A stretch of DNA of 64,000 bases from an uncultured Clostridium sp. (GTDB taxonomy: Bacteria; Bacillota; Clostridia; TANB77; CAG-508), in contig CABUGH010000003.1 in NCBI GenBank assembly GCA_902491155.1, positions 691-64,690 on the forward strand. Direction: 5' to 3'. Below, piece by piece: positions 1 through 22,558 of this stretch (position 1 is its first letter; the number at the start of each line of letters is the position of its first letter). Made by a program: the position numbers and the translations under genes. The notes beneath the pieces were generated by a model, which was given only the letters and a program-made list of their open reading frames with translations, did no database searches and was not told the origin of the DNA.

Positions 1-231
1 AAGAGATGTCTATATACTGAGCTACTTATAAGTGGTACTTTGAAACAGTATCTGCTAGACATAGATAAAAATGCTAGTAATAAAGTGAATTTACTTATAA
101 AGAAATTTGCTGAAGATGAAAATGTTAATGAGCAGCTAAAGGAACATCATCAAATGGAGTGGGTTCAGGCTATGAATAATATTAAAAATAGGGCTGAAGA
201 AATTGTTTTGAATGAACTTATATATGTATAG
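1..231 (+). CDS. tnpV: TnpV-like transposon-associated protein, C-terminal part (5' end lies outside the window)
   Basis: Frame 1 is open from base 1 (KRCLYTELLISGTLKQYLLDIDKNA...QMEWVQAMNNIKNRAEEIVLNELIYV). It resembles the C-terminus of TnpV from Tn4451-type clostridial elements, recalled from memory. Confidence 0.55.
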   Translation, partial: KRCLYTELLISGTLKQYLLDIDKNASNKVNLLIKKFAEDENVNEQLKEHHQMEWVQAMNNIKNRAEEIVLNELIYV

Positions 232-243
232 GAGGATATAAAG

Positions 244-533
244 ATGGTTAATTTTAGAAAAGTAAATGATGATATTTTGAAGGAGTGGTTATTATATAGA
301 GAGGATGAATTTTCTTCTTTAACTTGTGATGAAGATAAGGAACATTGGGTTTATTTTGATGAGATTTCTGATAAATTTTTAATTCTATTCCTAAACAGAA
401 TAGAGATTTTGTTAGAAAACAACTTAATATTCTTGATGATAATTTCTTGGATTATCTTGGCTATTGGAATGAGAAATATTACAGGAATGGTTTTGTAGAT
501 GGCTCCCAGCTAATTATGGGATGTTTTGAGTAA
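244..533 (+). pseudogene. Small conserved hypothetical gene, frameshifted near 372-380
   Basis: The ORF 244-498 turns into a hydrophobic nonsense tail. Another frame continues as IFNSIPKQNRDFVRKQLNILDDNFLDYLGYWNEKYYRNGFVDGSQLIMGCFE and stops at 531-533. The switch lies at the gataaattttt homopolymer stretch. Confidence 0.5.
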
Positions 534-632
534 TAATTTAATCACTGTTTAGTTACATAATAAAAAGGAAATAGATATATACATGAAGTGCAGCCAAAAA
601 GTTAGACACTTTTTCTGTTTCCTTTTTACTAT

Positions 633-1151
633 TTATTTTTCTAATTCTTCAAAGCCTTGTATTTCATAGTATTTTTTTCCATCAAAACAACATTCTAATT
701 TGTAATAATACTCATTATTCATAACATCTGTAACTGTTAAATATATTTCATTAGCATTTTTTATTTCATCAGGGAAAATATATAAATAAAAAATAGTATC
801 TTTATCTATTATATTACCATGCTCAGGAAAATAATACTTCCCATCTATAACTATATTTTTTAATATCATTATTGCATTATCTGTATTCTTTATTATACCT
901 TCTATCTCATAATCTCCTTTAATTTTACTTTCATTTACCATAACAAAATCATCGGCTTTATCCAGCCCGTTTATTATTTGATATGAATTATTAGCATAAA
1001 AATATGGTTTTATTCTTAATTTTTTATCTTCTATATCTTTTTTCTTTTGACTATTTATTGTTATTATCACTCCTCCTAATGTTAATATTCCTCCAATAAA
1101 AGATGCTACTATCGGAATAATAACATCTGAAATAATATTTAGATCATTCAT
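633..1151 (-). CDS. Hypothetical protein with a single N-terminal TM helix; last gene of the KAP-GNAT operon
   Basis: 172-aa ORF. It has a hydrophobic N-terminus (IIPIVASFIGGILTLGGVIITI) followed by a Tyr/Ile-rich soluble part. Its start overlaps the GNAT gene by 8 nt. Confidence 0.45.
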   Translation of the reverse strand: MNDLNIISDVIIPIVASFIGGILTLGGVIITINSQKKKDIEDKKLRIKPYFYANNSYQIINGLDKADDFVMVNESKIKGDYEIEGIIKNTDNAIMILKNIVIDGKYYFPEHGNIIDKDTIFYLYIFPDEIKNANEIYLTVTDVMNNEYYYKLECCFDGKKYYEIQGFEELEK

Positions 1152-1638
1152 ATCTTATTTCTCCTATATCTATTTTATTATTTTTCTTTTTTAATATTAA
1201 TGTTGTATGTTGTGATATTTTATCATGTACAAATCCAAATCTCTTCCAAAACCAATTTCCATCACCATCTGGTTGTAAAATAATGTTTTCATCTTTATAT
1301 ACTTCATCTAAAATATATTTAGCTAAAATCTTTCCAATTCCTTGGTTACGGTATGGATAATCTATCATAAAATCAGAAACGAATATATTTTCATCATCTA
1401 CATCATATTTTTTACTTATATTATTTGAATAATATATCACATGCAAATCTTCATAAATTATTGCATATCCTATTATTTTATATCTATACAAAATTGTTTT
1501 TTCTATAACTAAAAATATCTTTTCCCCTTTAGAAAAAGTTTGTATATTTAGAGTGTTTAAATATTTTGATTTATTGTATTTTCTAATAAATTTAGAATAC
1601 TCAATTCTTGTATTATAATCATATTCTATAATTTCCAT
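1144..1638 (-). CDS. GNAT family N-acetyltransferase
   Basis: 164 aa with a GNAT motif A-like YRNQGIGKILAKYILDEV. It lies 18 nt downstream of the KAP NTPase gene. Confidence 0.6.
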   Translation of the reverse strand: MEIIEYDYNTRIEYSKFIRKYNKSKYLNTLNIQTFSKGEKIFLVIEKTILYRYKIIGYAIIYEDLHVIYYSNNISKKYDVDDENIFVSDFMIDYPYRNQGIGKILAKYILDEVYKDENIILQPDGDGNWFWKRFGFVHDKISQHTTLILKKKNNKIDIGEIRYE

Positions 1639-1656
1639 ATCATATTATTCACCTTT

Positions 1657-4263
1657 TTATTTTATATTTATTTCTCTCAAGTCAATAAATTTATCAACAT
1701 ATACTGCTTTTTCGTGTAATGTAGCATTCGTTTCTTTTTCTTTTGAATTTTTATATACTCGTTTTATAAATTTTTCTATATCATTTAAATTCTCATCATT
1801 AATTTTAGATAATATTTCATCAACAATTTCATATGAACTAAGTTTATTGAATGTGTCAAAATTAATTGAATATCCATATCCTCCTGTTCCTACTGAATTT
1901 GATATCATATCTGCTAAAAATCCAAATATATTTTTTTCATTAATATATTTCATTTGATTTATACCTTCTTCACTATCTATTAAACAATATATGTTATACC
2001 TTGAATAATTCTTTTTATTATAAATATTTATATTATTATTAGTAACATTTAGTATTAATTTTTTGTAGCTTTCATCCAATTCATTATATAATTTTTCATT
2101 ATAATTCTGCTCCAAAGAATTATTTTCTTTCTTTAACCAGTGTATCATACCTCTTATAAAGTACATATTTTTATAATTAATTTCAATTATTGATTTAACT
2201 TGTTCTAATTCTTTTTTCGATAAATGTCTTATTATTTCTGCACAAACTATTTCTAGCCTATCATTTGCATTTAATCCAAAAAAGATTGATGTATTATCCA
2301 TATATTTTTGTGATTCGATTAAACAAATTAAAATAGGAACTTTATTTTTGTCAATATCTCTACAATACATTTCTATTGTTTCAATTATAAATTTTTGCCC
2401 TATTCCTTTATACATATATAATATTTCTGAAAGTTTATTTTGTAGTGTTTTAATTTCTTCAATATTCTCTAAATCAAGTTCATTTTTATTATTCCATTCA
2501 ACAAACTCCTTTATTTTAGTGTCTATACTTATAAAATCATTTTCTTGTTTTACAAAATATAAATCGAAAAACTTAGCATTATATATTCTTCTTTCAATTA
2601 AAGATTGCCTATATTGTTCTTTATCTCTTGGAATAAGATATTCTGATTCATTTAAAAATTCAACATTCTTATGATAAAATCTATATGCTTTGTCATATTT
2701 CTCTACGTTAGGAAATAATAAACATAGTATATCCTTATATTCTTTATTTTCACTACTTCCAAATAAATCAGCAAAATATTTAGTTGCACGTTCATTAAAT
2801 TCTTTTGCACTATCTTTTAAATAGCCATAAACTGCAACTTGATCTTCTGAAACATAATATTCATAATTTTTTCTAATATCTTTATATAATTCTATATTTT
2901 CTTGTCTAATTAGCTCTATTAAAAAATAATCTACTTTGTTTAAATAATTATCTCCAAAAAAACAACTATTACATATAGAGTTTATTTTTCTTTTAAAAGA
3001 TCTTAAGTCTTTTATATTTTTATTAAACAAATTAATTGCTGGTATATATTTTTCCATATCTTCTTTATTAATTCCATAATGTATTAATAAATTTTTCATA
3101 CATGTTACATAAACTTCATTTATATCTTCCTGATTAATATCTGGTACTGACAATGGTAATTGAATAACTTTATCCATATAATCATAATTAATATGTAATT
3201 TATTTTTAAATATATCTTTCATTTCATCTTCATCATAACTTAAAACATATATAAATCTTTCTATATTTAAAATTGTAGAAATAGTTTTTAAAATAACTAA
3301 AATATTATTTTCATTCGTCCTTTCAAGATTATCTATAATAAACACTACTCTTTTATTATTCTTTTTTAAATACTCACCTATCATTAATTTAATTTTATCT
3401 ATTATTTTATAATCAAATGAAAAATATCCTATATTTACATCTGCTTTTAACGAAACTATAGCTATACAACTATTAACAAATTTTTTTACTTCTAACGTAC
3501 TAAAATTTATGCCAATTTTTTTTATAATTTCATCAAACATTCCATATAGCAAAGCTTTTTCATTATTATATTTCCATGTTTCAAAATTATCAATAATTAT
3601 AAAGTTTTCAGGATCTAATTGTTTTTTCACAATATTTAATATTGTAGTTTTACCAGAACCCCACTTTCCTGTTAAAGATATTATAAATCTCTCTTTATTT
3701 TTGCAATAATTTATACTATTAAATAAATCTCCAATAATTTTATTTCTATTTAGTAAATCATAATCAACATCTTTTTCTTCAAGAAAAATTAAATCATGAT
3801 TACTATTATCTATTTCATTTTTATATAGTTTTCTAATATCATATACATTAAATTCTTTTTTCTCATTTACTTTTTTATCCAATATGTACATTATGATAAG
3901 TCTTAAGATTATAAAACCTATCAATACATTTTCTAGTAATATACACATTATTAATTTAAAACTTGAATATGAAATATATTTACTATATAACATATATATT
4001 GTCGTAGATATAAAACCTGCAAATAATATTAAATCAAAATAATTAAAGACATTAACCTTTATCAAGTTTAAAAATTTTTTATCAATTATAAAAAATGTAA
4101 TAACTACTATTAAAGCAATAATACAATATATATCATAATTTTCTAATAAGAAAGTAGGAATATTAAACATATCTATTAACAAAAATACTATTATAAATAA
4201 TAAAATAGTTTCAATTATCTCTCTAACTTTAAATATTTTTAGAAAATTTATTCTTTCTTTCAT
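1657..4263 (-). CDS. KAP-family P-loop NTPase with an N-terminal multi-TM region
   Basis: 868 aa. The Walker A is LTGKWGSGKTTILN, and DNLER is a Walker B-like motif. About 4-5 hydrophobic helices lie in the first 130 aa. Confidence 0.65.
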   Translation of the reverse strand: MKERINFLKIFKVREIIETILLFIIVFLLIDMFNIPTFLLENYDIYCIIALIVVITFFIIDKKFLNLIKVNVFNYFDLILFAGFISTTIYMLYSKYISYSSFKLIMCILLENVLIGFIILRLIIMYILDKKVNEKKEFNVYDIRKLYKNEIDNSNHDLIFLEEKDVDYDLLNRNKIIGDLFNSINYCKNKERFIISLTGKWGSGKTTILNIVKKQLDPENFIIIDNFETWKYNNEKALLYGMFDEIIKKIGINFSTLEVKKFVNSCIAIVSLKADVNIGYFSFDYKIIDKIKLMIGEYLKKNNKRVVFIIDNLERTNENNILVILKTISTILNIERFIYVLSYDEDEMKDIFKNKLHINYDYMDKVIQLPLSVPDINQEDINEVYVTCMKNLLIHYGINKEDMEKYIPAINLFNKNIKDLRSFKRKINSICNSCFFGDNYLNKVDYFLIELIRQENIELYKDIRKNYEYYVSEDQVAVYGYLKDSAKEFNERATKYFADLFGSSENKEYKDILCLLFPNVEKYDKAYRFYHKNVEFLNESEYLIPRDKEQYRQSLIERRIYNAKFFDLYFVKQENDFISIDTKIKEFVEWNNKNELDLENIEEIKTLQNKLSEILYMYKGIGQKFIIETIEMYCRDIDKNKVPILICLIESQKYMDNTSIFFGLNANDRLEIVCAEIIRHLSKKELEQVKSIIEINYKNMYFIRGMIHWLKKENNSLEQNYNEKLYNELDESYKKLILNVTNNNINIYNKKNYSRYNIYCLIDSEEGINQMKYINEKNIFGFLADMISNSVGTGGYGYSINFDTFNKLSSYEIVDEILSKINDENLNDIEKFIKRVYKNSKEKETNATLHEKAVYVDKFIDLREINIK

Positions 4264-4280
4264 CTTATTCCTCCATTATA

Positions 4281-4311
4281 AAAGACAAGATAATCCCGTT
4301 ATCTTGTCTTT
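4281..4311 (-). terminator. Hairpin between the DUF4268-type gene and the KAP NTPase gene
   Basis: aaagacaagat / atcttgtcttt is an 11-bp perfect stem with a 9-nt loop. The following T run is weak, so the call is moderate. Confidence 0.45.
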
Positions 4312-4323
4312 TGTAAAAATATT

Positions 4324-5253
4324 TTATTTATTATAAATTTTATTAAATTCTTTTTTTACTATTAAAGCATTATGACAGAACCATTTAAAGCATCCTTCCC
4401 ACTCTTCTTGATTTGTTACATCAAATTTTTTTATAGCCTTTATTCTTGAAGCTTTTTTATTATCTAATCGTTGCCATTTATACTTTAATCCAGTCTTTTC
4501 TTCTAGCAATTCTTTATTAGTATAAAATAAATCATATATTTCTTTGTTATTATCAATATAAACTTCTATTCCTATTTCACTTCTTTGTGTTGCACATGTT
4601 AATGAAATATGATATTCAGAGTTTCCCATAGGTAAGTCATACCAATGTTGTGGTAATGCTTTTCTTTTATTAAATTCTTTTGAGTAATCTTCATTACTTG
4701 CACCATATTCTCCAAATGCTTGCCAAAACTCTCCTTGTAATTTTTGAGCTTTTCCCAGTCCATTAGTTGCTTTTTGAGTTTTTCCCCAATCATTTGGCTT
4801 TGATACTATATTAAATTTAGGTGCAGCTAGAGAATCTCCTATTTTCCAAACTTCAATTTCTAATAAGAAAAATCCAACTTCTTCGTCAGTATGTGCATTT
4901 AACCATTCTATAGCTTGTCTATGTTCATCTCTAGCTCTTTTTACTATCCATATAATAGTTTTTGCATCTTTTCCAGAAGCATATGTAATTATTTTTCCTA
5001 AATGGTCATGATTAGAATCTTCTAACTGATTTTCTATTACAACTTTTCTGTCTGTTCCTTCTTCTTTTCCATAGATATCAACGCTATATTTTCCAACTGC
5101 TGATTCTCTTTCTTCTAGTACTATATCAATTCCTATAGTATTACTTAGTTCCTTTAAGTTTTCTTCTTTACTCAACCAAACAGAAAAATCATATTCTTCA
5201 TTTGGCCAAATATCTCTTAATTTAACTTTTTCTAATTTTCCTAGTTTATTCAT
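4324..5253 (-). CDS. DUF4268-type protein with an N-terminal PD-(D/E)XK-like nuclease core
   Basis: 309 aa. VDIYGKEE...VVIENQLEDSNHDHLGKIITYASG matches the D...E-x-Q plus DHDHLGQ signature I recall for DUF4268 proteins found beside type I RM loci. Confidence 0.55.
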   Translation of the reverse strand: MNKLGKLEKVKLRDIWPNEEYDFSVWLSKEENLKELSNTIGIDIVLEERESAVGKYSVDIYGKEEGTDRKVVIENQLEDSNHDHLGKIITYASGKDAKTIIWIVKRARDEHRQAIEWLNAHTDEEVGFFLLEIEVWKIGDSLAAPKFNIVSKPNDWGKTQKATNGLGKAQKLQGEFWQAFGEYGASNEDYSKEFNKRKALPQHWYDLPMGNSEYHISLTCATQRSEIGIEVYIDNNKEIYDLFYTNKELLEEKTGLKYKWQRLDNKKASRIKAIKKFDVTNQEEWEGCFKWFCHNALIVKKEFNKIYNK

Positions 5254-5281: not shown

Positions 5282-6064
5282 TTATATCATCTTTTTTAAT
5301 ATCATTGCTAATATTTCATATGCATACTTATATACTTCTATAGAATTCTTATCTGGTAAAACTTCACCATGCATTAAAGAACATCTTAATAAGTATAATA
5401 TATCTACTAACGCCATTGATATTTTTTCATTATTATCTATAAAGTGTATATTTAAAAATATGTTTTTATCTTTATCCGATACTGTCTTTTTTAAAACACT
5501 TTCAATTGTATATGGGTTAATCTCTCCATAAAAATATTTTAACTGTAATTTTTTTTCATCTGATAACTTCTTAAAATCACTATTATTTTCCAATTCTATT
5601 TCATTATAGCTTTCTTGATATAATTGAAACTCTATATGATTTACATTATTCTTATTTACTATTTTACTTTCAATAGAGCTATTAGTTCTCCTTAAAATAT
5701 ATCTTGACATTCTATATATTTCATCGCAAGTATTTTTTGTATTTACCATTGCTATATTCGCAAAAGATATTTTAACAACTTTTGAAGATCGTTCTTGAGT
5801 CATAATAGCTGAATTAGTAAGAGCTCTATGCAAATTTCCTATATTTTCCTTAAATTTTATTGATTCATTACTCGAAGAATCTAATAATGAATTAATATAG
5901 TTTTTAAATTCATTATTTTGTGACTTTATTTTTTCTATTATCTTTATATCTTGTTTATCGTTATATTTTGTTCTATACCAAGAATTGAAAGCAATCCACG
6001 CCTTTATAAAAGCTGAAAAATAGTCTACTTCTATATCAATTTTATCTATCCAATCTTTATACAT
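5282..6064 (-). CDS. HEPN-like protein (Rx4H motif)
   Basis: 260 aa. The C-terminal LRCSLMHGE fits the HEPN Rx4-6H motif, and the N-terminus has an FIKAWIAFNSWY helix. Beyond that I have no family recognition. Confidence 0.35.
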   Translation of the reverse strand: MYKDWIDKIDIEVDYFSAFIKAWIAFNSWYRTKYNDKQDIKIIEKIKSQNNEFKNYINSLLDSSSNESIKFKENIGNLHRALTNSAIMTQERSSKVVKISFANIAMVNTKNTCDEIYRMSRYILRRTNSSIESKIVNKNNVNHIEFQLYQESYNEIELENNSDFKKLSDEKKLQLKYFYGEINPYTIESVLKKTVSDKDKNIFLNIHFIDNNEKISMALVDILYLLRCSLMHGEVLPDKNSIEVYKYAYEILAMILKKMI

Positions 6065-6077
6065 TTTTTATTTCCTC

Positions 6078-7385
6078 TTATTTACTTTGATTTATATATT
6101 TTATTGCTTCATCTTCATTTTTTTCTATTGCTATTTGTATAGCTTTTTTAGCGATTTCCAATAGGTCTTTTGATTTCTGTCTTAATTCGAATGTTTTTCT
6201 TAATTTGTTTGAGACTCTATCTTGTATACTTTTATCTAAAATAGGAATCTCTATTTTTTTTAAATCTTCTTTATTTATACAAGTTAATATAGTGCCCGTA
6301 CATTGTTGTTTCATTAACGATTGCATTAGTTTGCTCTTAAAAAGTACTAATAAACAATTAGATTCTATATATTCACTATCTATAACAAAAAATCCATTTG
6401 AACAAATGGCACCATCAAATTCTTCATCTATTATAGCGCAACTATTTAGAGATCCTTCAATAGAAGAAACAATGACTTGTCCTTTCTTCACCATCCTCCT
6501 AGCTCTTGTAGGTAATTCACTGCCTATAATTTCTCTAACGTCTAAAATATCCATGTTATTCCTTACATTTGACAATTCAATATATTTATAAGTTTTATCA
6601 TTTTCCGGTATAAAGTTTTTATCATATATATTACAAATATCTCCTACTGTTCTTTTGCTTCCATTGTAATTTCTTATAAACTCATTATACTTTTCATAAT
6701 TTAGTTGATAATATTCTGCATCTAATCTATTAGAATTTTTTACACTTTCTTTATAGCTTTTTATATTATAATTTATATTATTTCCATTCTCTTGATAATC
6801 AATTACTTGATCAAATTCTTCTTCAACTTCTTTATATAATCCTACGCTCATTTCATTCATTTCATGTTGTTTATCAACAAGAGATTCAATAATAGATTGA
6901 AAATTATCACTAAATTTAGGTATTGGTATTCTTCTTATTCTTGACATAGCAACTGTTGGTTGCGCTGATAATGTTTTCTCTTTATTTAAAATACTTTGCC
7001 CTATATCTAAATTAAGAAAAACAGATAAAAGTCCTGATTTTATTTGGCAATTATTTTTTGGCCTAATTCTACATACATTAGGTCCTAATTGGTAATTTTC
7101 TTCATATAATTTTAAGGCTCTTCTATATTCTCCAGTATATGATAATATTATATCATTTTTATGTAACTTTGATCTCTGCAAAAATTTGTCTGCTACGTTT
7201 TTGTCTATAGTAATATAATCATTTAAATCCAAAAAATTTTTTTGAATATTTTTACTTGTCAAAGCTATATAGTTTTCACTGGAGGTCATATTTTTATTAG
7301 TAAAATATTCTGTATACTCAAAACCTGCTAGCTTTGATACTTCAAATTCTTCTCCTATATATCTAAAATCCTTTGATTTTATCAT
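6078..7385 (-). CDS. hsdS: Restriction-modification specificity (HsdS-like) subunit with two TRDs
   Basis: 435 aa from the first ATG, with an internal RLDAEYYQLNYEKY conserved region. The same frame stays open upstream to about 7562 and encodes a second copy of that motif (FRYDAEYFNKEA) with no ATG/GTG/TTG in front. Confidence 0.8.
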   Translation of the reverse strand: MIKSKDFRYIGEEFEVSKLAGFEYTEYFTNKNMTSSENYIALTSKNIQKNFLDLNDYITIDKNVADKFLQRSKLHKNDIILSYTGEYRRALKLYEENYQLGPNVCRIRPKNNCQIKSGLLSVFLNLDIGQSILNKEKTLSAQPTVAMSRIRRIPIPKFSDNFQSIIESLVDKQHEMNEMSVGLYKEVEEEFDQVIDYQENGNNINYNIKSYKESVKNSNRLDAEYYQLNYEKYNEFIRNYNGSKRTVGDICNIYDKNFIPENDKTYKYIELSNVRNNMDILDVREIIGSELPTRARRMVKKGQVIVSSIEGSLNSCAIIDEEFDGAICSNGFFVIDSEYIESNCLLVLFKSKLMQSLMKQQCTGTILTCINKEDLKKIEIPILDKSIQDRVSNKLRKTFELRQKSKDLLEIAKKAIQIAIEKNEDEAIKYINQSK

Positions 7386-7537
7386 TTTTATATATTTAGT
7401 TGCCTCTTTATTAAAATATTCAGCATCATATCTAAAGCATTCATTATTATTTAGAACTTCTTTTTTACTAATTTCAACACATTCTAGCCCGTCTAATAGC
7501 CTTTCATATAGTTTCTTGTTGAAGGGCTTCGGGCTAT

Positions 7538-9508
7538 CTAAAAAAAACTTAATTTTTCTTTTTTAGCAAATTCTATAAAAGCTTCAGCAATTCCATCTTG
7601 TGTTAAACCTTCATGATTATATAAATCATGATCTACAATTAAATGTCCATGATTATCTAAAATATTTTCACCATTTTCATCTTTAACATATATTTTTTCA
7701 CCTGAATTGTTTTTCCCTGGTTTTTGCATTGTAGCAAAGAAAATATTATAATCATCAACTTTGGGGCATAATTTATCATCCCATTTCTGTACAAATAATA
7801 CACTTGTCTTCGTTCCAGTATGTGGTTTAAATGTATTTCCATGTAATCCAACAACAGCTAGTATTCTACACCTTTCAGAAATGAACTCTCTTATATATTG
7901 ATCATTAGCATTATTAAATCTTCCTTGTGGCAAGATTATAGCCATTCTTCCACCTGGTTTTAAGAAATTAAGATTTCTTTCAATAAATAGAATATCTCTT
8001 CCAACTTTATTTTGCCACTTTCCTTTAGAATTCTTTCCTAATTCATATCTAGTAATAATTTGATTTTCTTTTATATCTCCTGCAAATGGTGGATTTGCCA
8101 TTAAAACGTCAAAATTAAATTCTTTATAATCATTTGCTCCTTCAGGTCTTATTCTTTTTAATTTTCTAAATCCTTCAAAATAAGCATCTTGCCATCTATC
8201 TTGCCTTGTTATTTCATCCCACCTTGAATAATCTAATGTATTTAGGTTAATAACATTAGTTTTTCCATCTCCTGCTATTAAGTTAAGGGTTTTTGCTACT
8301 CTAACAGCTTTTTCATCAAAATCTATTGCAAACACTTTATCTTCAACATATTTTATTTCATCATTACTTCTTTCTTCTGCTGTAAAATTATCTCCTTTAG
8401 GCAAGCCTTTTCTTTCTCTTATGGCATTCCATACATGAAAAATACTATGTACTGTGAATCCAGAACTACCTGCTGCTGTATCTATAACATATTCATCTTC
8501 CTTTGGGTTCATCATTTTTACACACATGTCAATTACATATCTTGGTGTAAAATATTGTCCTTTTTCTCCTTTTGATGATTTACTCATCAAATATTCAAAA
8601 GCATCATCTACTACATCCAAATTTGAATTAAATAATTTTACATTCTGCAATGAAGCAACACAAACAGATAGATGTGATGGTGTCAATAAAATTTTGCTAT
8701 CCTCATCAAATACTCCTCTCCATTTGTTTTTTGCTTCTTCAAATAATACAGAAATTTTATTATATAATTCCATCTCTGTACAACCACTGTTTCTAAACTT
8801 TAAATATGATGTTTTATCTCTAGCAGCCATTAATTCATCATATAATTTTGTGAAAATCAATTTAAATACTTCTTCAAAAGAGTCTACTCCTGCACTCGCT
8901 AATACTTCATCCTCCATTTCTTGGATTAAATTCTTAAGTGATTTCTTCTCTGTTTGCAGTTTATCTATTTTTTTTAAATCTTCATATGTTACTTTCTCAT
9001 TAATGATGTCAGATAGTTTCTCACTTGATTTTGGAATGTTTGTTATATCTTCAAAATAATTTGGATCTTTTCTATTGTAATAAGAAATTTGTTCTCCATT
9101 GGTCCAAACACCAATTGGTGCACCTGTAGCATTACAATAAGATTTTAATTGTTCTTTTCCATCCGCTAATTTTGGTTTTTTTAATTCAACAATAATATAT
9201 GGTACAAGTGGATCATTTATATCATTAATAACGATATCTGCTCTCTTTACTTCTCTTCCAAAATGAATTGGGTATTCTAAAGTTATTCTATCTTTTGAAT
9301 ATCCATATGTATTTATTAATTTATTTAGGAATAATTGTCTTACAGTTTCTTCCGGTGTCAATTTTATTTCTTTTTCTCTAATAATACATTGTACATAAGC
9401 AGTTTCATCTTTATAGTAAATTTTATTTTCAAATTTATTTATTTCTTCTTCAGAAAATTGTGTATCATCATAATTGGAATTTTTTAATATCTCATTTATT
9501 TTTTTCAT
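7538..9508 (-). CDS. N6-adenine DNA methyltransferase fused to an N-terminal HSDR_N/PD-(D/E)XK domain
   Basis: 656 aa. Motif IV is MANPPFAG and motif I-like is VIDTAAGSSGF. The N-terminus RADIVIND...PYIIVELKKPK is a D...ExK nuclease-type core. Confidence 0.8.
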   Translation of the reverse strand: MKKINEILKNSNYDDTQFSEEEINKFENKIYYKDETAYVQCIIREKEIKLTPEETVRQLFLNKLINTYGYSKDRITLEYPIHFGREVKRADIVINDINDPLVPYIIVELKKPKLADGKEQLKSYCNATGAPIGVWTNGEQISYYNRKDPNYFEDITNIPKSSEKLSDIINEKVTYEDLKKIDKLQTEKKSLKNLIQEMEDEVLASAGVDSFEEVFKLIFTKLYDELMAARDKTSYLKFRNSGCTEMELYNKISVLFEEAKNKWRGVFDEDSKILLTPSHLSVCVASLQNVKLFNSNLDVVDDAFEYLMSKSSKGEKGQYFTPRYVIDMCVKMMNPKEDEYVIDTAAGSSGFTVHSIFHVWNAIRERKGLPKGDNFTAEERSNDEIKYVEDKVFAIDFDEKAVRVAKTLNLIAGDGKTNVINLNTLDYSRWDEITRQDRWQDAYFEGFRKLKRIRPEGANDYKEFNFDVLMANPPFAGDIKENQIITRYELGKNSKGKWQNKVGRDILFIERNLNFLKPGGRMAIILPQGRFNNANDQYIREFISERCRILAVVGLHGNTFKPHTGTKTSVLFVQKWDDKLCPKVDDYNIFFATMQKPGKNNSGEKIYVKDENGENILDNHGHLIVDHDLYNHEGLTQDGIAEAFIEFAKKEKLSFF

Positions 9509-11291: not shown

Positions 11292-11648
11292 ATGATACAA
11301 TGTGATTGTCAAGAAAACATTGAAAGGATTTGTAAAAATATGTGTCAAAAAGATTATAACAAAAAAATAGAAAAAAAGAAATACCAACATTTAAATTATG
11401 CTGAAAAAACACAAATAGAAAGATGGTATAACATAGAAAAGAAGGCATGTTCAGAGATAGCAAAATTATTAAATAAAAGTGTGAGAACAATACAAAGAGA
11501 AATAAAAAGAGGAATGGTAGAAAATCTAACAACACAGTTAGAAATAAAATATGTATATAGTGCAGATGTATCAGAGAAAAAATATAGATATAACATGACA
11601 GCGAAAGAACCAAATTTGAAATATAAATTAGTAGAATATATAGAATAA
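11292..11648 (+). pseudogene. IS30-family transposase, N-terminal HTH fragment only
   Basis: 118 aa. HLNYAEKTQIERWYNIEKKACSEIAKLLNKSVRTIQREIKRG matches the IS30 HTH region. No catalytic DDE part follows. Confidence 0.55.
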
Positions 11649-11900
11649 CTAACCTAAAAAATCATCAAAGATTAGAAAAAACTAAAGAAAAATACATCTA
11701 TATATAAGAAATTAAATATGAAATTACGATTTAAAAAAGTGCAGTTGTTAGATTTGAGCTTATCGGTTCAGGTTACCCTATTTATAAGGTAGGAAAAGTT
11801 CAAGAAGTTTTCGAAGATGAAGTTGTACTTATCGAACAGATAAGTGTAGAAAAACAATCAACTAACAATAATGAATTCGATTACATGAATTCCCGTTACG

Positions 11901-13442
11901 GAGAATATAGAGTTTACCGTGTAAACTAGGATTGACTATGATTATTAGATACTGTAATTAATTTTATGGTATCTATTATTTTATATTTTTAATATACATC
12001 ATTTTTGTTATAATGTAAATATTAATATTAATTTTTATGCGTTCACTTAATAAACCTTATTAAAAAGGTTTTATTAAGTGAACATAATGTCTATTATTTT
12101 TTAAACATTTATTGTATTTGAAATTCTATCTCCATAATGAATTCTTAATTCTTGAAGAATAACACCCCAATTTTGATATTTTGCTGTCCATTTTTCTGTA
12201 ATTATTTCTGTTGCTAAAAACAAACTTTTTTCTAAAGACTGTTCACTTGGAAATATTCTACGTCCTTTATTTATCCTTTTATAGCTATTATTAAGACTTT
12301 CAATGGCATTAGTTGTATACATTATTTTTCTTAATTCTGGTCCAAATTTGAAAAATGGAACTATTGCATCCCAATTGTTATTCCAATTATCTAGTGAAAC
12401 TTTTCTTTTACTCCATTTTTCTTGTAATTCTAGTAAATTCGTATATGCTGAATCCGCATCAGCTGCTGTATATATTAATTTTAAATCCTTACACAATTCT
12501 CTTCTATCTTTATATGATACAAATACCACAGTATTTCTTATCATATGAACTATACATCTTTGAAATTCTACCATAGGATAAATTGCTGCTATTGCTTCTT
12601 TCAAACCAGATAATCCATCAGCACATAATACTAAAATATCTTTTACTCCTCGATTTTTTAGATTATTTAATATTCCAGCCCATTGTTTAGCACTTTCTAC
12701 TTCACTAATATAAAATCCTAAAACTTCTTTTTCGCCTGAAAGATTTATCCCTAAAATTATATAAACTGCTCTTTTTACAATTCTTTGTTCAACTTTGACA
12801 TTAAAATATGTTGCATCTATAAAAATAATTGGATATACACTTTCTAATGGTCTATTTTGCCACTCTTTGATTTTGGGAATAACCTTATTTGTTATTGATG
12901 TTACCATATCTGGACTAATATGTACACCATATAATTCTTTCATCTGTTCATATATTTCTTTATTAGATGTTCCTCTAGCATACATTCTAATTTTCTTTTG
13001 CTCAATATCTGAAATATCATTTGATCCTTTTTCAACTATCATTGGTTCAAATTCACCATTTCTATCTCTTGGAACATCAATTTTAAAATCTCCTGCACTG
13101 GAATGTATTGTTTTTGAGCCATATCCGTTTCTATAATTTGTTTTTGCATCATCAGTATACTCGTACTTATTATATCCTAATTGAGTGGTCATTTCTGCTT
13201 CTAACATTTCCTGAAGTGTATCTTTAAACATATCCTTTAAAGCTTCTTGGATATCTTGTGCAGTATTAATATTATTCTGTGCAATAAACTCCTGTAAAAA
13301 TTTTCTTCTTTCTTCTGATATTTTTTGATGTTTAGCCATTTTTTGCTCCTTTCTTACAATAGAAAAATTGACTATGATTTTTTCTATTGTATCATAGTCA
13401 ATTTTTATTTTCTAGAGTTTACACAGTTATTTCGATATACTC
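11901..13442 (-). mobile_element. IS256-family insertion sequence
   Basis: The terminal imperfect inverted repeats are gagaatatagagtttaccgtgtaaactagg...attgactatga (left) and tcatagtcaat...tctagagtttacacagttatttcgatatactc (right). The flanks are near-identical (cccgttacg / cccgtttacg), consistent with a target duplication. Confidence 0.75.
12101..13339 (-). CDS. IS256-family (mutator-type) transposase
   Basis: 412 aa. The N-terminus IQEALKDMFKDTLQEMLEAEMTTQLGY and the overall layout are typical of IS256 transposases. Confidence 0.9.
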   Translation of the reverse strand: MAKHQKISEERRKFLQEFIAQNNINTAQDIQEALKDMFKDTLQEMLEAEMTTQLGYNKYEYTDDAKTNYRNGYGSKTIHSSAGDFKIDVPRDRNGEFEPMIVEKGSNDISDIEQKKIRMYARGTSNKEIYEQMKELYGVHISPDMVTSITNKVIPKIKEWQNRPLESVYPIIFIDATYFNVKVEQRIVKRAVYIILGINLSGEKEVLGFYISEVESAKQWAGILNNLKNRGVKDILVLCADGLSGLKEAIAAIYPMVEFQRCIVHMIRNTVVFVSYKDRRELCKDLKLIYTAADADSAYTNLLELQEKWSKRKVSLDNWNNNWDAIVPFFKFGPELRKIMYTTNAIESLNNSYKRINKGRRIFPSEQSLEKSLFLATEIITEKWTAKYQNWGVILQELRIHYGDRISNTINV

Positions 13443-14744: not shown

Positions 14745-14948
14745 TTTCTTCCTCCTCATAAGCTTCATTCTTCATCTAAAATTACATCTGTATTTCTTAT
14801 TTATTGATGTATCTATTTTTATCACATTTCTTCTTTTTATTCAATAGCTTATAACCATAATTTTAAAAAATATTACCATTTTACTTGAATTTATTTTTAT
14901 TTTAGTATAGTATATAAGTAGAAAAATAAATACATAGGAGGATTAATC

Positions 14949-15914
14949 ATGCCAAGAAAAACTAAAGAACAGAAAGAATTAGAAAATAAAAAAATAACAT
15001 CCACAAAACAAAATAAAGAAGCAAAAAGTAATTCAAAAATATCTGCAAATAAAAAAAATTTGGAACCAAAAAACAAAAAATCAACTTCAAAAAACACAGC
15101 ATCTGCAAAATCAACAACAAAAAAAGTTGTAAAAACCACCAAAAGAACTACTTCCACATCAAAAAGTAGTCAAACAAAAGCAAAAAAAGCAACATCACCA
15201 AAAAGGTCAACAACCAAAAGCCCTAAAATTGCAGTAGTTGAATATTACGATTTGCCTTATAGATATAATCAAACTATAGTAAAAGTTCTTGCACAAACTC
15301 CAAATACTTTATTTGTTTATTGGGATATTGCAGATTCAGACAGAGAAAACTTTAAAAAGCAATATGGTTATGACTTTTTTGATAAAACATACCCTATTCT
15401 TATCGTTCACAATAGAACAATGAATTATTCTTTTGAAGTTGATATTAATGACTTTGCAAATTCTTGGTATCTACATGTAAATGATGCAAATTGCGATTAT
15501 GAAATTGAACTTGGCAGAAAACCAATTTATAATTATGTATCACATCAAGTTGGAAAATTAGAGCAAAAAGATAAAAACTCAGAATTTAATAAATATCCTT
15601 CTAAGCCTATAGATAAAGATTATTTTTATGTTACTATGTCAAATCCTATAGATGCTCCAAATGATCATATTTTATTAGAAGATTCTAACAAACCTATTGG
15701 AAATATCTTAATTAGAAATGTAAAATCAAATAACGAATATCGTAAAAATATTAATGACTTACCAATTTCAAAACACCTAAATAAAATATACAACATACAA
15801 AATATTTATAAAGCTTTATTTGAAGAAAAAATTATAAAAGAATTTTATAATTTATCAAATCCTTCTTCAGGGGGTAACCATTCTTCTGGAAGTTTTTCTT
15901 CAAGATTTAAATAA
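14949..15914 (+). CDS. DUF4912-type protein with a Lys/Ser/Thr-rich N-terminal tail
   Basis: 321 aa. YDLPYRYNQTIVKVLAQTPNTLFVYWDI matches the DUF4912 start as I recall it. It sits directly upstream of a GH57 gene, as is usual for this family. Confidence 0.55.
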   Translation: MPRKTKEQKELENKKITSTKQNKEAKSNSKISANKKNLEPKNKKSTSKNTASAKSTTKKVVKTTKRTTSTSKSSQTKAKKATSPKRSTTKSPKIAVVEYYDLPYRYNQTIVKVLAQTPNTLFVYWDIADSDRENFKKQYGYDFFDKTYPILIVHNRTMNYSFEVDINDFANSWYLHVNDANCDYEIELGRKPIYNYVSHQVGKLEQKDKNSEFNKYPSKPIDKDYFYVTMSNPIDAPNDHILLEDSNKPIGNILIRNVKSNNEYRKNINDLPISKHLNKIYNIQNIYKALFEEKIIKEFYNLSNPSSGGNHSSGSFSSRFK

Positions 15915-15977
15915 AATTAAATTTAGAATTTGATATACAAAAAATAGATCTATATCTATGAAAGGAATGTGATAAAA

Positions 15978-17564
15978 ATGCAAGAAAAAAAAGGATATGT
16001 AAGTTTTGTATTACATGCACATCTTCCATTTATTCACCACCCAGAAAGTGACGATTATTTGGAAGAATCATGGTTATATGAAGCAATCTCAGAAACATAT
16101 ATACCACTTCTCACTTATTTTAAAAAATTAGTAGATGAAGGCGTCAATTTTCGTATTACAATGTCAATGACGCCTCCATTGCTTTCTATGCTAGACAATA
16201 AATTACTACAAAAAAAATATATACACTACTTAGAACAATTAATTGAACTATCAGAAAAAGAAATAAAAAGAACTTCTTATGATAAACGTTTAAACAGGCT
16301 TTCACACTATTATTATGATAGATATTCAAACGATTTACACTTATTTAAAGATGTTTTCAAATGCAATTTAATAGAACAATTCAAACATTTCCAAGATATT
16401 GGAGTTTTAGAAATAATAACATGTGGCGCAACACATGGGTATTTCCCTATCTTATATGTTAACGAAAAAACAGTAAAAGCACAAATTGCAGTTGGTGTAC
16501 AAACATACGAAAAATATTTTGGTAAAAAACCTCGCGGTATTTGGCTTCCTGAATGCGGATATATACCAGAAGCTGATAAATATCTCCGTGAATTTGGTAT
16601 TGAATACGCCATTACTGAAACACATGGCATTTTATATGCTAATCCAACACCTATATATGGAACTCTAGCACCAATTGTCTCTCCTGATGGACTTGTAGCA
16701 TTTGGGCGTGATTTAGAATCTTCTCGACAAGTTTGGAGCTCTATAAATGGATATCCAGGAGATTATAATTACAGGGAATTTTATAGAGATATTGGTTACG
16801 AAGCAGATTATGATTATATAAAACCATATATAGCACACAATGGTGTACGTGTTCATACAGGAATAAAATATTATCGTATAACAGGAAAAACAGATCAAAA
16901 AGACTATTATGATATTCAATGGGCTCACGATTCTGCTGAAAGACAAGCAGGACATTTCTTAGACTCTCGTGTAAAACAAATAAATAACGCTACTCAATAT
17001 ATGGACAAACCACCTATTATACTTTGTCCATATGATGCAGAACTTTATGGTCACTGGTGGTATGAAGGCCCTTATTGGTTATACATCTTATTTAAAAAAA
17101 TTTATTACGATGACTGCAATTTTGAATTAATAACACCTTCCGAATATATTGATAAATATCCAGAAATTCAAGTTGCAACTCCTTGTCGCTCTAGTTGGGG
17201 AGCAAATGGATATAGTGAAGTATGGCTTAATCCTACAAATGATTATGTTCATCGCCATTTACATGTAGCTGGCGACAGAATGTGTGAACTTGCTTCTCTT
17301 TATCCAAATGCAAAAGGCTTAAAGAAAAAAGCACTTAATCAATGTGCCAGAGAGTTATTGTTAGCTCAAAGTAGTGATTGGCTATTTATTATCACTAATG
17401 GTACCATGGTTGACTATGCAAAAAAGCGCATTAAAGACCATATTGGTCGTTTTACAAAATTATATTATCAAATTAAAAACAATGAAATTGATGCAGATTT
17501 TTTATCTGACATTCAAAAAAAAGATTGCTTATTTCCAGATATTGATTATAATATTTATGGATAA
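15978..17564 (+). CDS. Glycoside hydrolase family 57 1,4-alpha-glucan branching enzyme
   Basis: GYVSFVLHAHLPFIHHPE at the N-terminus, plus CPYDAELYGHWWYEG. The length is about 528 aa. Confidence 0.8.
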   Translation: MQEKKGYVSFVLHAHLPFIHHPESDDYLEESWLYEAISETYIPLLTYFKKLVDEGVNFRITMSMTPPLLSMLDNKLLQKKYIHYLEQLIELSEKEIKRTSYDKRLNRLSHYYYDRYSNDLHLFKDVFKCNLIEQFKHFQDIGVLEIITCGATHGYFPILYVNEKTVKAQIAVGVQTYEKYFGKKPRGIWLPECGYIPEADKYLREFGIEYAITETHGILYANPTPIYGTLAPIVSPDGLVAFGRDLESSRQVWSSINGYPGDYNYREFYRDIGYEADYDYIKPYIAHNGVRVHTGIKYYRITGKTDQKDYYDIQWAHDSAERQAGHFLDSRVKQINNATQYMDKPPIILCPYDAELYGHWWYEGPYWLYILFKKIYYDDCNFELITPSEYIDKYPEIQVATPCRSSWGANGYSEVWLNPTNDYVHRHLHVAGDRMCELASLYPNAKGLKKKALNQCARELLLAQSSDWLFIITNGTMVDYAKKRIKDHIGRFTKLYYQIKNNEIDADFLSDIQKKDCLFPDIDYNIYG

Positions 17565-17566
17565 TA

Positions 17567-17621
17567 TTTTCAGGGCTGAAGTCAAAAAGTATTAATATTT
17601 TTTTGACTTCAGCCCTGAAAA
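17567..17621. terminator. Rho-independent terminator
   Basis: The arms ttttcagggctgaagtcaaaaa and tttttgacttcagccctgaaaa are a perfect 22-nt pair with a T run. Confidence 0.8.
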
Positions 17622-17709
17622 CATTATCACTTTTTTTATCATTTTTCATATTATAATGTATAAGTTCACACGTTTAGTAGATACTAGTTATGAAAGGAGA
17701 CTATCTGGT

Positions 17710-18588
17710 ATGAAAACAATATGTATTAAAACAAATAATACAGCAACCTTATCATATTTACTAAACGAATTACGCTTATCCAACCTTAAACAAACCTGTT
17801 TTACACAAAAACAATTTAAGCACTACAAAAACATAACAATACATTATTCAGGGCAAAACGAAGATTCATTTATACATTCCATAGCAGACATTCTTTCCTA
17901 TTTACTTATTGATGAACTAGAAGAATCCTTTTTAGCTAATATAATTCATCAAAATTATTTTTATTTTGATACAAATGAAAGAAACAAAATTCTTAGTTAT
18001 TGCTTTGACTTATTTTCCGAAGATTTTTCAAATTACTTTGACAAAAAGTTCTCTTATCTACATTCTCAATTCTATTCATATTTAAAAGAAAACAAATCAA
18101 TAATACTACAAGGTTTTATAAATTTTAGAATACAAGAATACTTTAAAATCTTAGACGAAGTAGTATCTGAAGCAGTCAACAGCTTTATTATAGAAAAAGA
18201 ATATTTGGAATTCATTTCATTATTAAAATTATATATTAATTCTCAAAATCCAAAATCAAATATTGTTCATTTAATATATAAAAAAAACAATCCGATTTTA
18301 CTTGATGAAAACAAAAATATTATACCACTAAATGATTCTATTTCTGATGTAAAATATTTGTCAGATATAAGTTTTTCTAAAAACGATCTTGTTTTAAATA
18401 CTTTATTATCAATTCTGCCCAAAAAAATCTATTTACATCTAATCAATAATAATATAGATGAATTTGCTAATACTCTAATATTAATTTTTGATAAAAAAAT
18501 TGAAATTTGTACTGATTGCAATCTATGTAATATATACAATATAAAAACTAAAAAAATAAAAGATAAAAGTAGAAATAAAAATGTCTAA
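17710..18588 (+). CDS. ytxC: YtxC-like putative sporulation protein
   Basis: The start is placed 9 nt after AAAGGAG. The motifs GFINFRIQEY and EKEYLEFISLLKLYI resemble the YtxC family. Confidence 0.45.
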   Translation: MKTICIKTNNTATLSYLLNELRLSNLKQTCFTQKQFKHYKNITIHYSGQNEDSFIHSIADILSYLLIDELEESFLANIIHQNYFYFDTNERNKILSYCFDLFSEDFSNYFDKKFSYLHSQFYSYLKENKSIILQGFINFRIQEYFKILDEVVSEAVNSFIIEKEYLEFISLLKLYINSQNPKSNIVHLIYKKNNPILLDENKNIIPLNDSISDVKYLSDISFSKNDLVLNTLLSILPKKIYLHLINNNIDEFANTLILIFDKKIEICTDCNLCNIYNIKTKKIKDKSRNKNV

Positions 18589-18628
18589 ACACATAAACAT
18601 TTTTATTCCTATTTTTTAATCTTTTAAC

Positions 18629-19930
18629 CTATTCTGCTATTATATAATGTTCTTTTGCATCAACGATTCTAACTTTTCCTATTGTATTTTCAATATTTTT
18701 ATCTAAATCCATGTGTTTTTCAACTAAAACATAATTTTTTGTATGTCCCTTATATACACCATTTTTTTCCTCTTCCCATAAAACTTCTACTTGTTTTCCT
18801 ATATATTTTTTATTGTATTCACACTCGTTTTTATCAGATAAATTGATTAATTTTTTACTTCTTTCTTCTTTTACTTCTGGTGATATTTGATCAGGCATTT
18901 GGGCTGCTTTAGTTCCTTTTCTTTGAGAATATTTAAATATATGCATTTTATAAAATTTTATTTGCTCCAAAAATTCATAAGTTTTGTTGAAGTCTTCTTG
19001 TGTTTCTCCAGGAAAACCAACAATTATATCTGTTGTTAAATTTACATCAGGATACGTTTTTCTTAAACAATGTACAATTTCAATAAATTGTTCTATTGTA
19101 TATCTTCTATTCATTCTTTTTAAAGTCTCATCACATCCACTTTGTAAAGATAAATGAAATTGTTCACATATTTTTTCTAATTTTGAAAGCCTTTGTACAA
19201 AGTCATCTGTTATAAGTAATGGTTCTATTGACCCTAATCTTATTCTTTGTATTCCATCTATTTTGTTAATTTCTTCAAGTAAATCTATAAGTCCATATTT
19301 ATTCTTAAAATCTTTCCCATATGATGCAATATGTATTCCTGTTATTACAACTTCTTTTATTCCTTGGTCTGCTATTTTTTTTATTTCTTTTAAAATATGT
19401 TCGGGTTCTCTACTTCTTACTCTTCCTCTTGCATATGGTATAATACAATATGAACAAAATCTATCACATCCGTCTTGAACTTTTATTACAGCTCTAGTCT
19501 TTTCTGTATAACTAGTTTCACCAAATTCTGCAAATTTTTTAGTATGTAATACATCTGTTAAAAACTCTTCTGATTCTGGCATTTTTTCTTTTAAAATTTT
19601 ATTACAATATTCTACAATATTTACCTTTTCTTCATTTCCTAAAGCTAAATCAATTTCTTCTATATTTTCTATTTCTTTTTTTGCAACTTGCACATAACAT
19701 CCAACTGCTATAACAACTGCATTTGGATTATTTTCTTTTGCTCTTCTAATCATCTGTCTTGATTTTCTATCAGACATATTTGTTACAGTGCATGTGTTTA
19801 TTATGTATATATCAGCTTTTTGGTTGTGGTCTACTATTTCGTATCCATTTTCCATCAATTTTTGAGCCATTGCATTTGTTTCATATTGATTTACTTTACA
19901 ACCTAATGTTATAAATGCTACTTTTTTCAC
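18629..19930 (-). CDS. mtaB: tRNA t6A37 methylthiotransferase MtaB (radical SAM MiaB family)
   Basis: The N-terminus is MKKVAFITLGCKVNQYETNAM. The radical SAM cluster is CDRFCSYC, and a C-terminal TRAM-like part is present. Confidence 0.8.
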   Translation of the reverse strand: MKKVAFITLGCKVNQYETNAMAQKLMENGYEIVDHNQKADIYIINTCTVTNMSDRKSRQMIRRAKENNPNAVVIAVGCYVQVAKKEIENIEEIDLALGNEEKVNIVEYCNKILKEKMPESEEFLTDVLHTKKFAEFGETSYTEKTRAVIKVQDGCDRFCSYCIIPYARGRVRSREPEHILKEIKKIADQGIKEVVITGIHIASYGKDFKNKYGLIDLLEEINKIDGIQRIRLGSIEPLLITDDFVQRLSKLEKICEQFHLSLQSGCDETLKRMNRRYTIEQFIEIVHCLRKTYPDVNLTTDIIVGFPGETQEDFNKTYEFLEQIKFYKMHIFKYSQRKGTKAAQMPDQISPEVKEERSKKLINLSDKNECEYNKKYIGKQVEVLWEEEKNGVYKGHTKNYVLVEKHMDLDKNIENTIGKVRIVDAKEHYIIAE

Positions 19931-20038
19931 TTCTCACTACTCCTTATTTTATATTTTCATTTAATGCTATAGGGATTTTCTAAACCCGTCTATAATTAAT
20001 AAATGCGACACCTATTTCATGCCGCATATTCTAATATT

Positions 20039-21043: not shown

Positions 21044-21214
21044 TGCTTCCCCTCCAAGTTTTTTTCGTTTATATTACATTTATATTGCAATTATATTACA
21101 AACCAGCAAAAATGGCAATAGGTTTGACAAAATTTTTGATTTTTTCTGTGTGTATTTGCAATCATACGATTTTTATATTATAATAATACTACAATAATTC
21201 TAAGGAGGTAATAA

Positions 21215-21685: not shown

Positions 21686-21724
21686 AATTACTTTTAATAA
21701 TTGGGCTTTAATTATATATACTAA

Positions 21725-22492: not shown

Positions 22493-22558
22493 GACAATTC
22501 CTCCTTTTATTTTTATGACTAAATTATATACTAGTTAATATATTTTTGCAAGTATTTT

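Follow-up and report, generated by a model that had tools for sequence, protein, structure and literature searches.

Here, we report that three genes near the start of a 64,000-nucleotide (nt) stretch of DNA from an uncultured Clostridium sp. (the window; GenBank assembly GCA_902491155.1, contig CABUGH010000003.1, positions 691 to 64,690 of the forward strand) are probably separate pieces of mobile-element cargo. They encode an 868-amino acid (aa) membrane-anchored KAP-type P-loop NTPase (KAP868), a 164-aa GNAT acetyltransferase (GNAT) and a 172-aa protein with a single transmembrane (TM) helix (TM172). We think it probable that they lie in a defence-cargo hot spot in which three cassettes assort independently, and that KAP868 is a stand-alone, membrane-anchored, nucleoside triphosphate (NTP)-dependent defence protein of a recently validated class. 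The region would be the distal end of such a hot spot in an integrative mobilizable element of gut Clostridia, built in the order tyrosine integrase, TnpV, a gene of about 97 aa, cargo and relaxase, and the three genes would be co-transcribed yet separate cassettes rather than one system. The original prediction had proposed them as a candidate novel three-gene anti-phage or abortive-infection module; this is not supported, as the trio is not conserved as a unit and each gene is found without the others in the same element family. The genes and the structures that bound them are:

1657-4263, minus strand: KAP868 gene, 868 aa, ATG start (open reading frame list and Pfam)
1144-1638, minus strand: GNAT gene, 164 aa, ATG start (open reading frame list and Pfam)
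633-1151, minus strand: TM172 gene, 172 aa, ATG start (open reading frame list)
4276..4316, minus strand: hairpin with a stem of ~15 bp, its 3' end 12 nt upstream of the KAP868 ATG (4263-4261) and just 5' of a GGAGG ribosome-binding site
557..632, minus strand: long stem, U-rich on its 3' side, directly 3' of the TM172 stop codon

The open reading frame (ORF) list confirmed the arrangement described in the original prediction, i.e., three minus-strand genes with an 18-nt gap between KAP868 and GNAT (1639-1656) and an 8-nt overlap between GNAT and TM172 (1144-1151). Given their lengths and the low GC content around the trio (20-24%), the three ORFs are far beyond chance. Because of the gap and the overlap, together with the hairpin 5' and the stem 3' of the unit, KAP868, GNAT and TM172 almost certainly share one transcript in the window. 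The hairpin (RNA fold of -16.1 kcal/mol, z = -5.5, no shuffle as good in 200) accompanies the KAP gene in four loci (the window, L006, L001 and L009) behind three different upstream genes, and two substitutions among these loci yield G-U pairs on the coding strand; it is the left edge of the KAP cassette and could be either a terminator or insulator of the upstream gene or a regulatory structure in the 5' untranslated region. No obvious space for a promoter is left between it and the KAP868 start codon, and a promoter scan of the AT-rich window DNA returned 99 sites where 98.8 were expected. The stem behind TM172 (-23.4 kcal/mol, z = -3.7, 0/200 shuffles as good) is likely the end of the transcription unit.

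Whether the three genes travel together was read from searches of related loci. The three proteins were compared by tblastn with 80 KAP loci, obtained from a scan of one genome per species, and here GNAT was found only where the KAP protein is at least 72% identical to KAP868 (L001-3, L006, L007, L008), and TM172 only in L006, where it is 89% identical. The hot spot itself, i.e., the interval between the relaxase and a conserved, reverse-oriented gene of ~97 aa, was tabulated from a search that used relaxase, ~97-aa gene and TnpV probes jointly, and from two further look-ups. Its contents are as follows:

KAP, GNAT and TM172: window/L098, L006
KAP and GNAT: L001-3, L007, L008
KAP alone: L009 (KAP 62% identical), L114/115 (54%)
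GNAT and TM172: L103, L105 (TM172-like, 40-44% identical)
GNAT alone: L092-97/L102, L100/101, L107, L109, L110
TM172 alone: L086-91

Six of the seven possible combinations thus occur in the hot spot, and only KAP with TM172 alone is missing; where present, the genes always keep the order KAP, GNAT, TM172 and then the ~97-aa gene. In L116 (KAP 57% identical) the KAP gene also stands alone, but inside a serine-recombinase element. Co-occurrence across diverged genomes is the operational definition of a conserved multi-gene defence system, and the original prediction had named its absence beforehand as the result that would count against the trio; the trio fails this definition, being confined to close relatives with a KAP identity of at least 89%.

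The GNAT gene marks the point at which the cargo changes. Its product belongs to Acetyltransf_1 (Pfam, 27.6 bits against a cut-off of 20.7), as had been proposed, with an intact acetyl-CoA motif, R97-N-Q-G100-I-G102 (RNQGIGK), in which G102 is invariant and R97 and G100 nearly so among 22 homologues. It has no match in NCBIfam or PADLOC, and a profile search of the PDB returned generic GNATs only (E >= 0.0045), with no TacT or AtaT among them. The genes found directly upstream of it differ from locus to locus:

Type II restriction endonuclease (REase): L100
AAA_13/PDC-S06 ATPase: L103
Unrelated soluble 423-aa KAP, PADLOC PDC-S20: L107 (5721-6992, PDC-S20 E=2.2e-40) and L109 (5720-6991, assigned by position and length only)
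Schlafen-type helicase: L108
DpnII fragment: L092/L102

When the 150 nt upstream of GNAT were aligned among loci with differing cargo, homology began at the GNAT start codon and the sequences before it were unrelated. In neighbour-joining trees of the GNAT proteins, neither the KAP-linked nor the TM172-linked GNATs were monophyletic in any of 200 bootstraps (0/200 each), and the GNAT of the KAP- and GNAT-containing loci L007/L008 paired with that of the KAP-less L100 in 188 of the 200. The breakpoint at the GNAT ATG, the varied upstream genes and the phylogeny together place GNAT at the left edge of a conserved right flank, and cargo is exchanged directly in front of it. Independent assortment in the hot spot, this breakpoint and the polyphyly of GNAT are the reasons for which we regard the three genes as separate cassettes. 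The wider occurrence of GNAT is in line: its most abundant homologue (P0152, 68% identity, 119 contigs) lies behind a Gabija-like pair and a DpnII fragment and is followed by T5orf172 and AbiJ genes, with KAP absent, and a metagenome scan with the GNAT alignment found 13 loci, only one of which has KAP, namely the one identical to the window. We also considered GNAT as the toxin of a toxin-antitoxin pair (TacT/AtaT/KacT type) and rejected this, since it has no small antitoxin-like neighbour, the upstream gene being KAP868 or other large cargo. A literature search found no described system of KAP plus GNAT.

TM172 behaves as a further small cassette. It has one N-terminal hydrophobic helix (aa ~9-32) followed by a beta-rich domain in a low-confidence AlphaFold model (pLDDT, the predicted local distance difference test score, of 57), and a lysine-rich stretch after the helix suggests that this domain is cytoplasmic. 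Its family is small (14 clusters), and no family was assigned to it by Pfam, PADLOC, NCBIfam or PHROGs, which agrees with its original description as a single-pass protein of no recognisable family. The profile searches and structure predictions suggested at the time were of uneven yield: KAP868 was matched in Pfam (PF07693) and PADLOC (PifA, QatA) and gave a good model (pLDDT 83.7, four N-terminal helices), GNAT was matched in Pfam and not in PADLOC, and TM172 gave neither a family nor a significant fold match, the best Foldseek match being an archaeal type IV pilin (E=4.5e-3) that we do not interpret. A TM172 homologue (P0125, 76% identity, 88 contigs) is preceded in a similar element by two Dam-type methylases, an HNH protein and GmrSD, without KAP or GNAT in the places shown. 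In L086-L091 this homologue (8001-8522) is separated by 35 nt from the GmrSD-type type IV restriction gene upstream of it. In L103 (7001-8007) and L105 (419-1433), GNAT is followed by the TM172-like protein without KAP868; the pair stands behind the AAA_13/PDC-S06 ATPase in the former, and the contig begins at the pair in the latter. GNAT and TM172 may thus be a recurrent two-gene block, and a functional link of the two to KAP868 is unlikely. The 161-163-aa genes that follow GNAT in L107/L109 were examined as TM172 relatives and turned out to be unrelated.

KAP868 itself combines a membrane domain, a KAP NTPase and a long C-terminal region. Its parts, all encoded on the minus strand, are:

aa 13-132, 3868..4227, minus strand: N-terminal membrane domain of four helices (hydropathy and AlphaFold)
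aa 173-430, 2974..3747, minus strand: KAP NTPase domain (Pfam)
aa 199-207, nt 3643-3669, minus strand: Walker A, GKWGSGKTT, fits GxxGxGK[ST]
aa 306-315, nt 3319-3345, minus strand: Walker B, VVFIIDNLER, of which FIIDNLER (aa 308-315) fits the KAP-type hhhhD[DN]L[DE]R
aa 440-868, 1660..2946, minus strand: C-terminal region, mostly helical with one small beta hairpin (AlphaFold)

The assignment to KAP_NTPase (PF07693) is firm (E=1.3e-38, 133.4 bits against a cut-off of 20). Among 58 homologues, down to 33% identity, G199, G202, G204, K205, T207, D311, N312 and R315 are invariant and E314 nearly so. The model places the membrane helices at H13-32, H35-61, H75-96 and H101-132, all upstream of Walker A, and neither hydropathy nor AlphaFold gives a hydrophobic segment between Walker A and Walker B. 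D31 is invariant in the same 58 homologues, as are D77 and R121 with few exceptions, and all three lie in or beside these helices. This argues that the membrane domain may do more than anchor the protein; the positive-inside rule predicts an N-in/C-in topology with the NTPase in the cytoplasm. The C-terminal region has no known domain, PDB searches matching the ATPase core at most: sequence and profile searches gave P-loop noise only, and Foldseek gave generic AAA+/STAND/RdrA/ORC/Cdc6-type cores at a TM-score of ~0.2, with the N- and C-terminal regions unmatched. The N-terminal position of the helices had been seen correctly in the original prediction, which took it for a departure from classical KAP NTPases. 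As Aravind et al. reportedly described in 2004, KAP TM helices are inserted within the NTPase domain, and the arrangement of KAP868 differs from that. The N-terminal position may nevertheless not be unusual, as KAP is described with four TM helices outside the P-loop domain (PMC13001434), a description that KAP868 fits.

The family around KAP868 is large, belongs to the Bacillota and has a fixed four-TM, KAP and C-terminal helical architecture; it is not a shuffled module. Homologues form 311 clusters at E <= 0.001, the full-length ones (~860 aa) among the matches listed extending to ~33% identity, with the N- and C-terminal regions conserved throughout. A search with the C-terminal 429 aa against 1.84 billion representatives gave 205 clusters, and nearly all of the best 150 of these are proteins of 840-880 aa that carry the region at the identical position. 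Outside this element family, KAP868 relatives have no conserved partner: a given Pfam family was seen at most 5 times among 103 non-redundant nearest neighbours, taken from ~60 family loci. At KAP identities of 62% or less the neighbours vary, and in a clade at 48%, for example, a multi-TM protein precedes the KAP gene and a NUDIX protein follows it; the 150-aa genes that follow KAP in this clade, considered as divergent GNATs, are these NUDIX proteins. Defence genes recur beside the family (IIG restriction-modification (RM), methylases, pAgo, SIR2, ThsB, AbiEi, zeta toxin, YobI ATPase, Schlafen/AlbA), as do the PADLOC candidates PDC-S07/S11/S18/S66 and the mobile-element genes TnpV, resolvase and integrase. 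For example, in L114 the KAP gene follows AIPR, Dcm, MazG-like, Schlafen-helicase and Shedu-like (SduA_C) genes. Neither KAP868 relatives nor GNAT are present in viral contigs (IMG/VR), and a plasmid protein search found distant KAPs only, the best at 31.6% identity (Acetoanaerobium) and those of Bacillus cereus plasmids at ~25%.

The closest counterparts with a demonstrated function are single-gene KAP proteins. A KAP NTPase from Enterococcus faecalis (EF_KAP) protects on its own from phages by up to six logs, and protection is also given by three further KAPs from gut metagenomes; that by EF_KAP is not abortive and requires Walker B and the C-terminal region, mutation or deletion of which abolishes it (PMC12632615, a 2025 preprint, and PMC13552941, its 2026 PLoS Biology version). 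EF_KAP has two TM helices, a 322-aa C-terminal region of unknown function and Walker B at D246/D247 (PMC13552941). Like the members of this class, KAP868 joins membrane helices to a KAP NTPase whose Walker motifs are intact and to a long C-terminal region of no known fold; it is likewise a stand-alone gene of Bacillota on a mobile element, adjoining other defence genes. It differs in its four N-terminal helices, its C-terminal region of ~430 aa and the position of Walker B (D311), and its element carries a tyrosine integrase, whereas the neighbour of EF_KAP is a small serine recombinase. KAP868 fits this class of TM helices, KAP and a region of unknown function (TM-KAP-RUF) by architecture and genomic behaviour, being likened to it by published description rather than by sequence alignment, and the single-gene character of that class has a genomic counterpart here in the lack of a conserved partner and in the KAP-only loci of the element family. 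The defence-island setting and these validated analogues sustain the earlier proposal of KAP868 as a defence candidate, and the novelty then claimed is weakened, as anti-phage activity has meanwhile been demonstrated for single-gene TM-KAPs whose C-terminal region is uncharacterised (PMC12632615, PMC13552941).

Other known systems share less with KAP868. PifA of the F plasmid excludes phage T7, is triggered by gp1.2 or gp10 and acts abortively. It is the best PADLOC match (E=2.1e-26, model positions 162-466 of 720): aa 165-490 of KAP868 align with aa 19-387 of PifA at ~20% identity (BLASTP E=4e-12; hhalign 98.4% probability for aa 165-484 with PifA 19-377), so that the KAP NTPase core and the helical region after it are shared. 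PifA has no N-terminal membrane domain, its C-terminal ~380 aa are unrelated to KAP868, and no pifC-like repressor stands beside KAP868; the homology is confined to the NTPase half, and we reject a full-length one. QatABCD and RADAR are soluble multi-gene systems whose QatA and RdrA have NTPase cores related to that of KAP868. The QatA models of PADLOC match KAP868 at E=4e-16, but NF041923 of NCBIfam scores 42.7 bits against a cut-off of 600 and no QatB, QatC or QatD is a neighbour, so KAP868 is not taken as QatA; RdrA of RADAR is the best PDB structural match (E=3e-5), at a TM-score of only ~0.22, and no RdrB is nearby. Tmn is a single-gene defence and, like KAP868, a P-loop NTPase anchored in the membrane whose cytosolic regions are long and helical; on sensing a phage protein it turns over more ATP and exports Mg2+, and it belongs to the YobI family with two TM helices inserted inside the P-loop domain (PMC13001434). 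KAP868 matches neither YobI-ATPase PF20693 nor PADLOC Tmn and has its TM helices at the N-terminus, and was rejected as a Tmn/YobI protein.

By analogy with the tested TM-KAP proteins, PifA and Tmn, a working scheme for KAP868 may be drawn. The four-helix membrane domain would hold the cytoplasmic P-loop NTPase and the family-specific C-terminal helical region, and the cytoplasmic part would sense a phage product. NTP binding and hydrolysis would then drive a conformational or oligomeric change, with an output at the membrane through the conserved charged residues, e.g., ion flux or leakage, that halts phage replication. The KAP family would require neither GNAT nor TM172: GNAT would be an orphan acetyltransferase at the fixed right edge, transcribed with any cargo upstream of it, and TM172 a second small accessory cassette.

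Several points weigh against our interpretation and should be set beside it. The membrane-output step is drawn purely by analogy, and the analogues diverge, as EF_KAP is reported to be non-abortive and PifA is abortive; the KAP868 family, moreover, is known from its sequences, and its likeness to EF_KAP is one of architecture and genomic behaviour. The contexts of GNAT and TM172 amount to about a dozen distinct loci from pattern scans, not an exhaustive census. Some neighbours of the KAP family are housekeeping genes. Most to the point, wherever KAP is at least 72% identical, GNAT follows at -14 to +27 nt, and because it follows every such KAP, a functional coupling specific to this subclade is possible. 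KAP868 and GNAT might then be a two-gene system, in which KAP senses and GNAT acetylates a target, or GNAT modulates KAP, TM172 being optional. This has in its favour that GNAT stands directly 3' of KAP in all these loci, which cover three upstream contexts, that the GNAT motif is intact and the protein well conserved, and that there is a second, independent juxtaposition, in which the unrelated 423-aa KAP (PDC-S20) directly precedes GNAT in L107/L109 and which may point to a genuine affinity between KAP and GNAT. We nevertheless hold it unlikely: GNAT is missing beside KAP868 in L009 and L114/115, which belong to the same element family, and in all of the ~65 more distant loci, GNAT occurs without KAP behind REase, AAA_13, SLFN helicase and DpnII-fragment genes, and the breakpoint at the GNAT ATG and the polyphyly of KAP-linked GNATs (0/200) speak against it. 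One or two independent juxtapositions in ~7 events are, by a rough estimate, not clearly above what abundant KAP cargo would lead one to expect. An obligate three-component anti-phage or abortive-infection system is far less probable still. The tight packing, the probable single transcript bounded by the upstream hairpin and the stem after TM172, and the recurrence of the trio in L006 (89% KAP identity) and in identical contigs are what one would expect of it, but the trio goes no further than that identity, five of the six other possible combinations occur, TM172 homologues stand behind GmrSD without either partner in the places shown (a cluster of 88 contigs), and neither GNAT nor TM172 is matched by a PADLOC model.

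The independent-cassette reading would also be wrong in its second half if KAP868 were not anti-phage at all and served element exclusion, maintenance, membrane-associated transfer or cellular signalling. Phage exclusion is perhaps not the primary function of PifA (quoted in PMC13552941), several family members adjoin housekeeping genes (NUDIX, HrcA, YebC), and the family is absent from the IMG/VR contigs. Such a role is nonetheless doubtful, given that the family is repeatedly sited among RM, Shedu-like, Schlafen, AIPR, pAgo, Thoeris-like and PDC genes, that KAP868 lies in the variable cargo and not in the element backbone, and that analogous single-gene KAPs are validated experimentally (PMC13552941). 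A more speculative idea, which we rate as improbable, is that GNAT, with or without TM172, is a portable accessory module that docks at the hot-spot end and serves NTPase-type defence genes upstream of it; KAP868, the 423-aa PDC-S20 KAP, AAA_13/PDC-S06 and the Schlafen helicase may be its partners, and it might acetylate a shared target or tune an activation threshold. Separately, and on the same speculative footing, the four-helix domain of KAP868, in which Asp31 is invariant and Asp77 and Arg121 are conserved, may itself act as an ion-conducting effector.

The remaining genes around the trio are consistent with the mobile-element and RM setting that the original prediction had recognised, with a relaxase, a type-I-like methylase, an S subunit and PDC-S11 upstream. 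They are:

4324..5253, minus strand: DUF4268 protein, PADLOC candidate single-gene defence PDC-S11 (PADLOC E=1.7e-119, almost end to end; Pfam E=1.6e-30)
5282-6064, minus strand: orphan 260-aa gene, flanked by HsdS and the PDC-S11 gene
6078-9508, minus strand: type-I-like methylase (656 aa, N-terminal HSDR_N_2 domain) and S subunit
244..498, plus strand: frameshifted copy of the ~97-aa backbone gene, with which the cargo hot spot ends in every related element
40..231, plus strand: C-terminal part of TnpV, an element backbone gene, clipped by the window edge (Pfam TnpV E=4.5e-19, profile positions 51-111 of 111)

Upstream of KAP868 the order is DUF4268/PDC-S11, the 260-aa gene, HsdS, the type-I-like methylase and a MobA/VirD2-type relaxase (Pfam, PADLOC). 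The DUF4268/PDC-S11 gene is separate cargo outside the trio and a candidate defence gene adjoining KAP868. No HsdR gene was found near the methylase/S pair, which may be a methylase-only or atypical restriction system, and the 260-aa gene, with no credible match in Pfam, PADLOC, NCBIfam or PHROGs, may either belong with this pair or be separate cargo. The copy at 244-498 is 78% identical to the ~97-aa gene across its first 46 aa and loses the frame thereafter; it is probably a genuine pseudogene rather than an error of sequencing, because independent assemblies call the identical 84-aa truncated ORF. Three contigs with an identical KAP868 (L117-L119) read chromosomal FtsZ, HTH_38 fragment, relaxase, methylase, HsdS, 260-aa gene, DUF4268, KAP868, GNAT and TM172, followed in reverse by the frameshifted 84-aa gene, TnpV and a tyrosine integrase. 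The cargo of an integrative mobilizable element thus ends with the trio, and the backbone on the integrase side follows. A search of PLSDB plasmids for near-identical DNA found none.

Some differences among these copies were also seen. Between the relaxase and chromosomal FtsZ, the window has an IS30-type helix-turn-helix fragment and an intact IS256/Mutator-family transposase (11292-13339, the transposase at 12101-13339); this IS256 copy is a recent insertion, as the sister contigs L117-L119 lack it. The relaxase is intact in the window (453 aa) and split into 258 aa and 201 aa in L117-L119. Past the integrase of the element, L117 has a second module (14884-22607) with HTH_17, Phage_rep_org_N, an IstB-like ATPase, NikA/MobC and HsdM, which suggests tandem or nested elements at this chromosomal site.

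Tight packing of genes in mobile-element cargo, even with a gene overlap, is not evidence of a multi-gene system: in the present hot spot, separate cassettes are lined up head to tail against a fixed flank. To our knowledge, signalling by PifA is still unsolved after decades. The large and coherent Bacillota family of four-TM KAP NTPases defined here, with ~205 clusters at 50% identity and conserved intramembrane charges, is a tractable target for the study of membrane KAP defence signalling.

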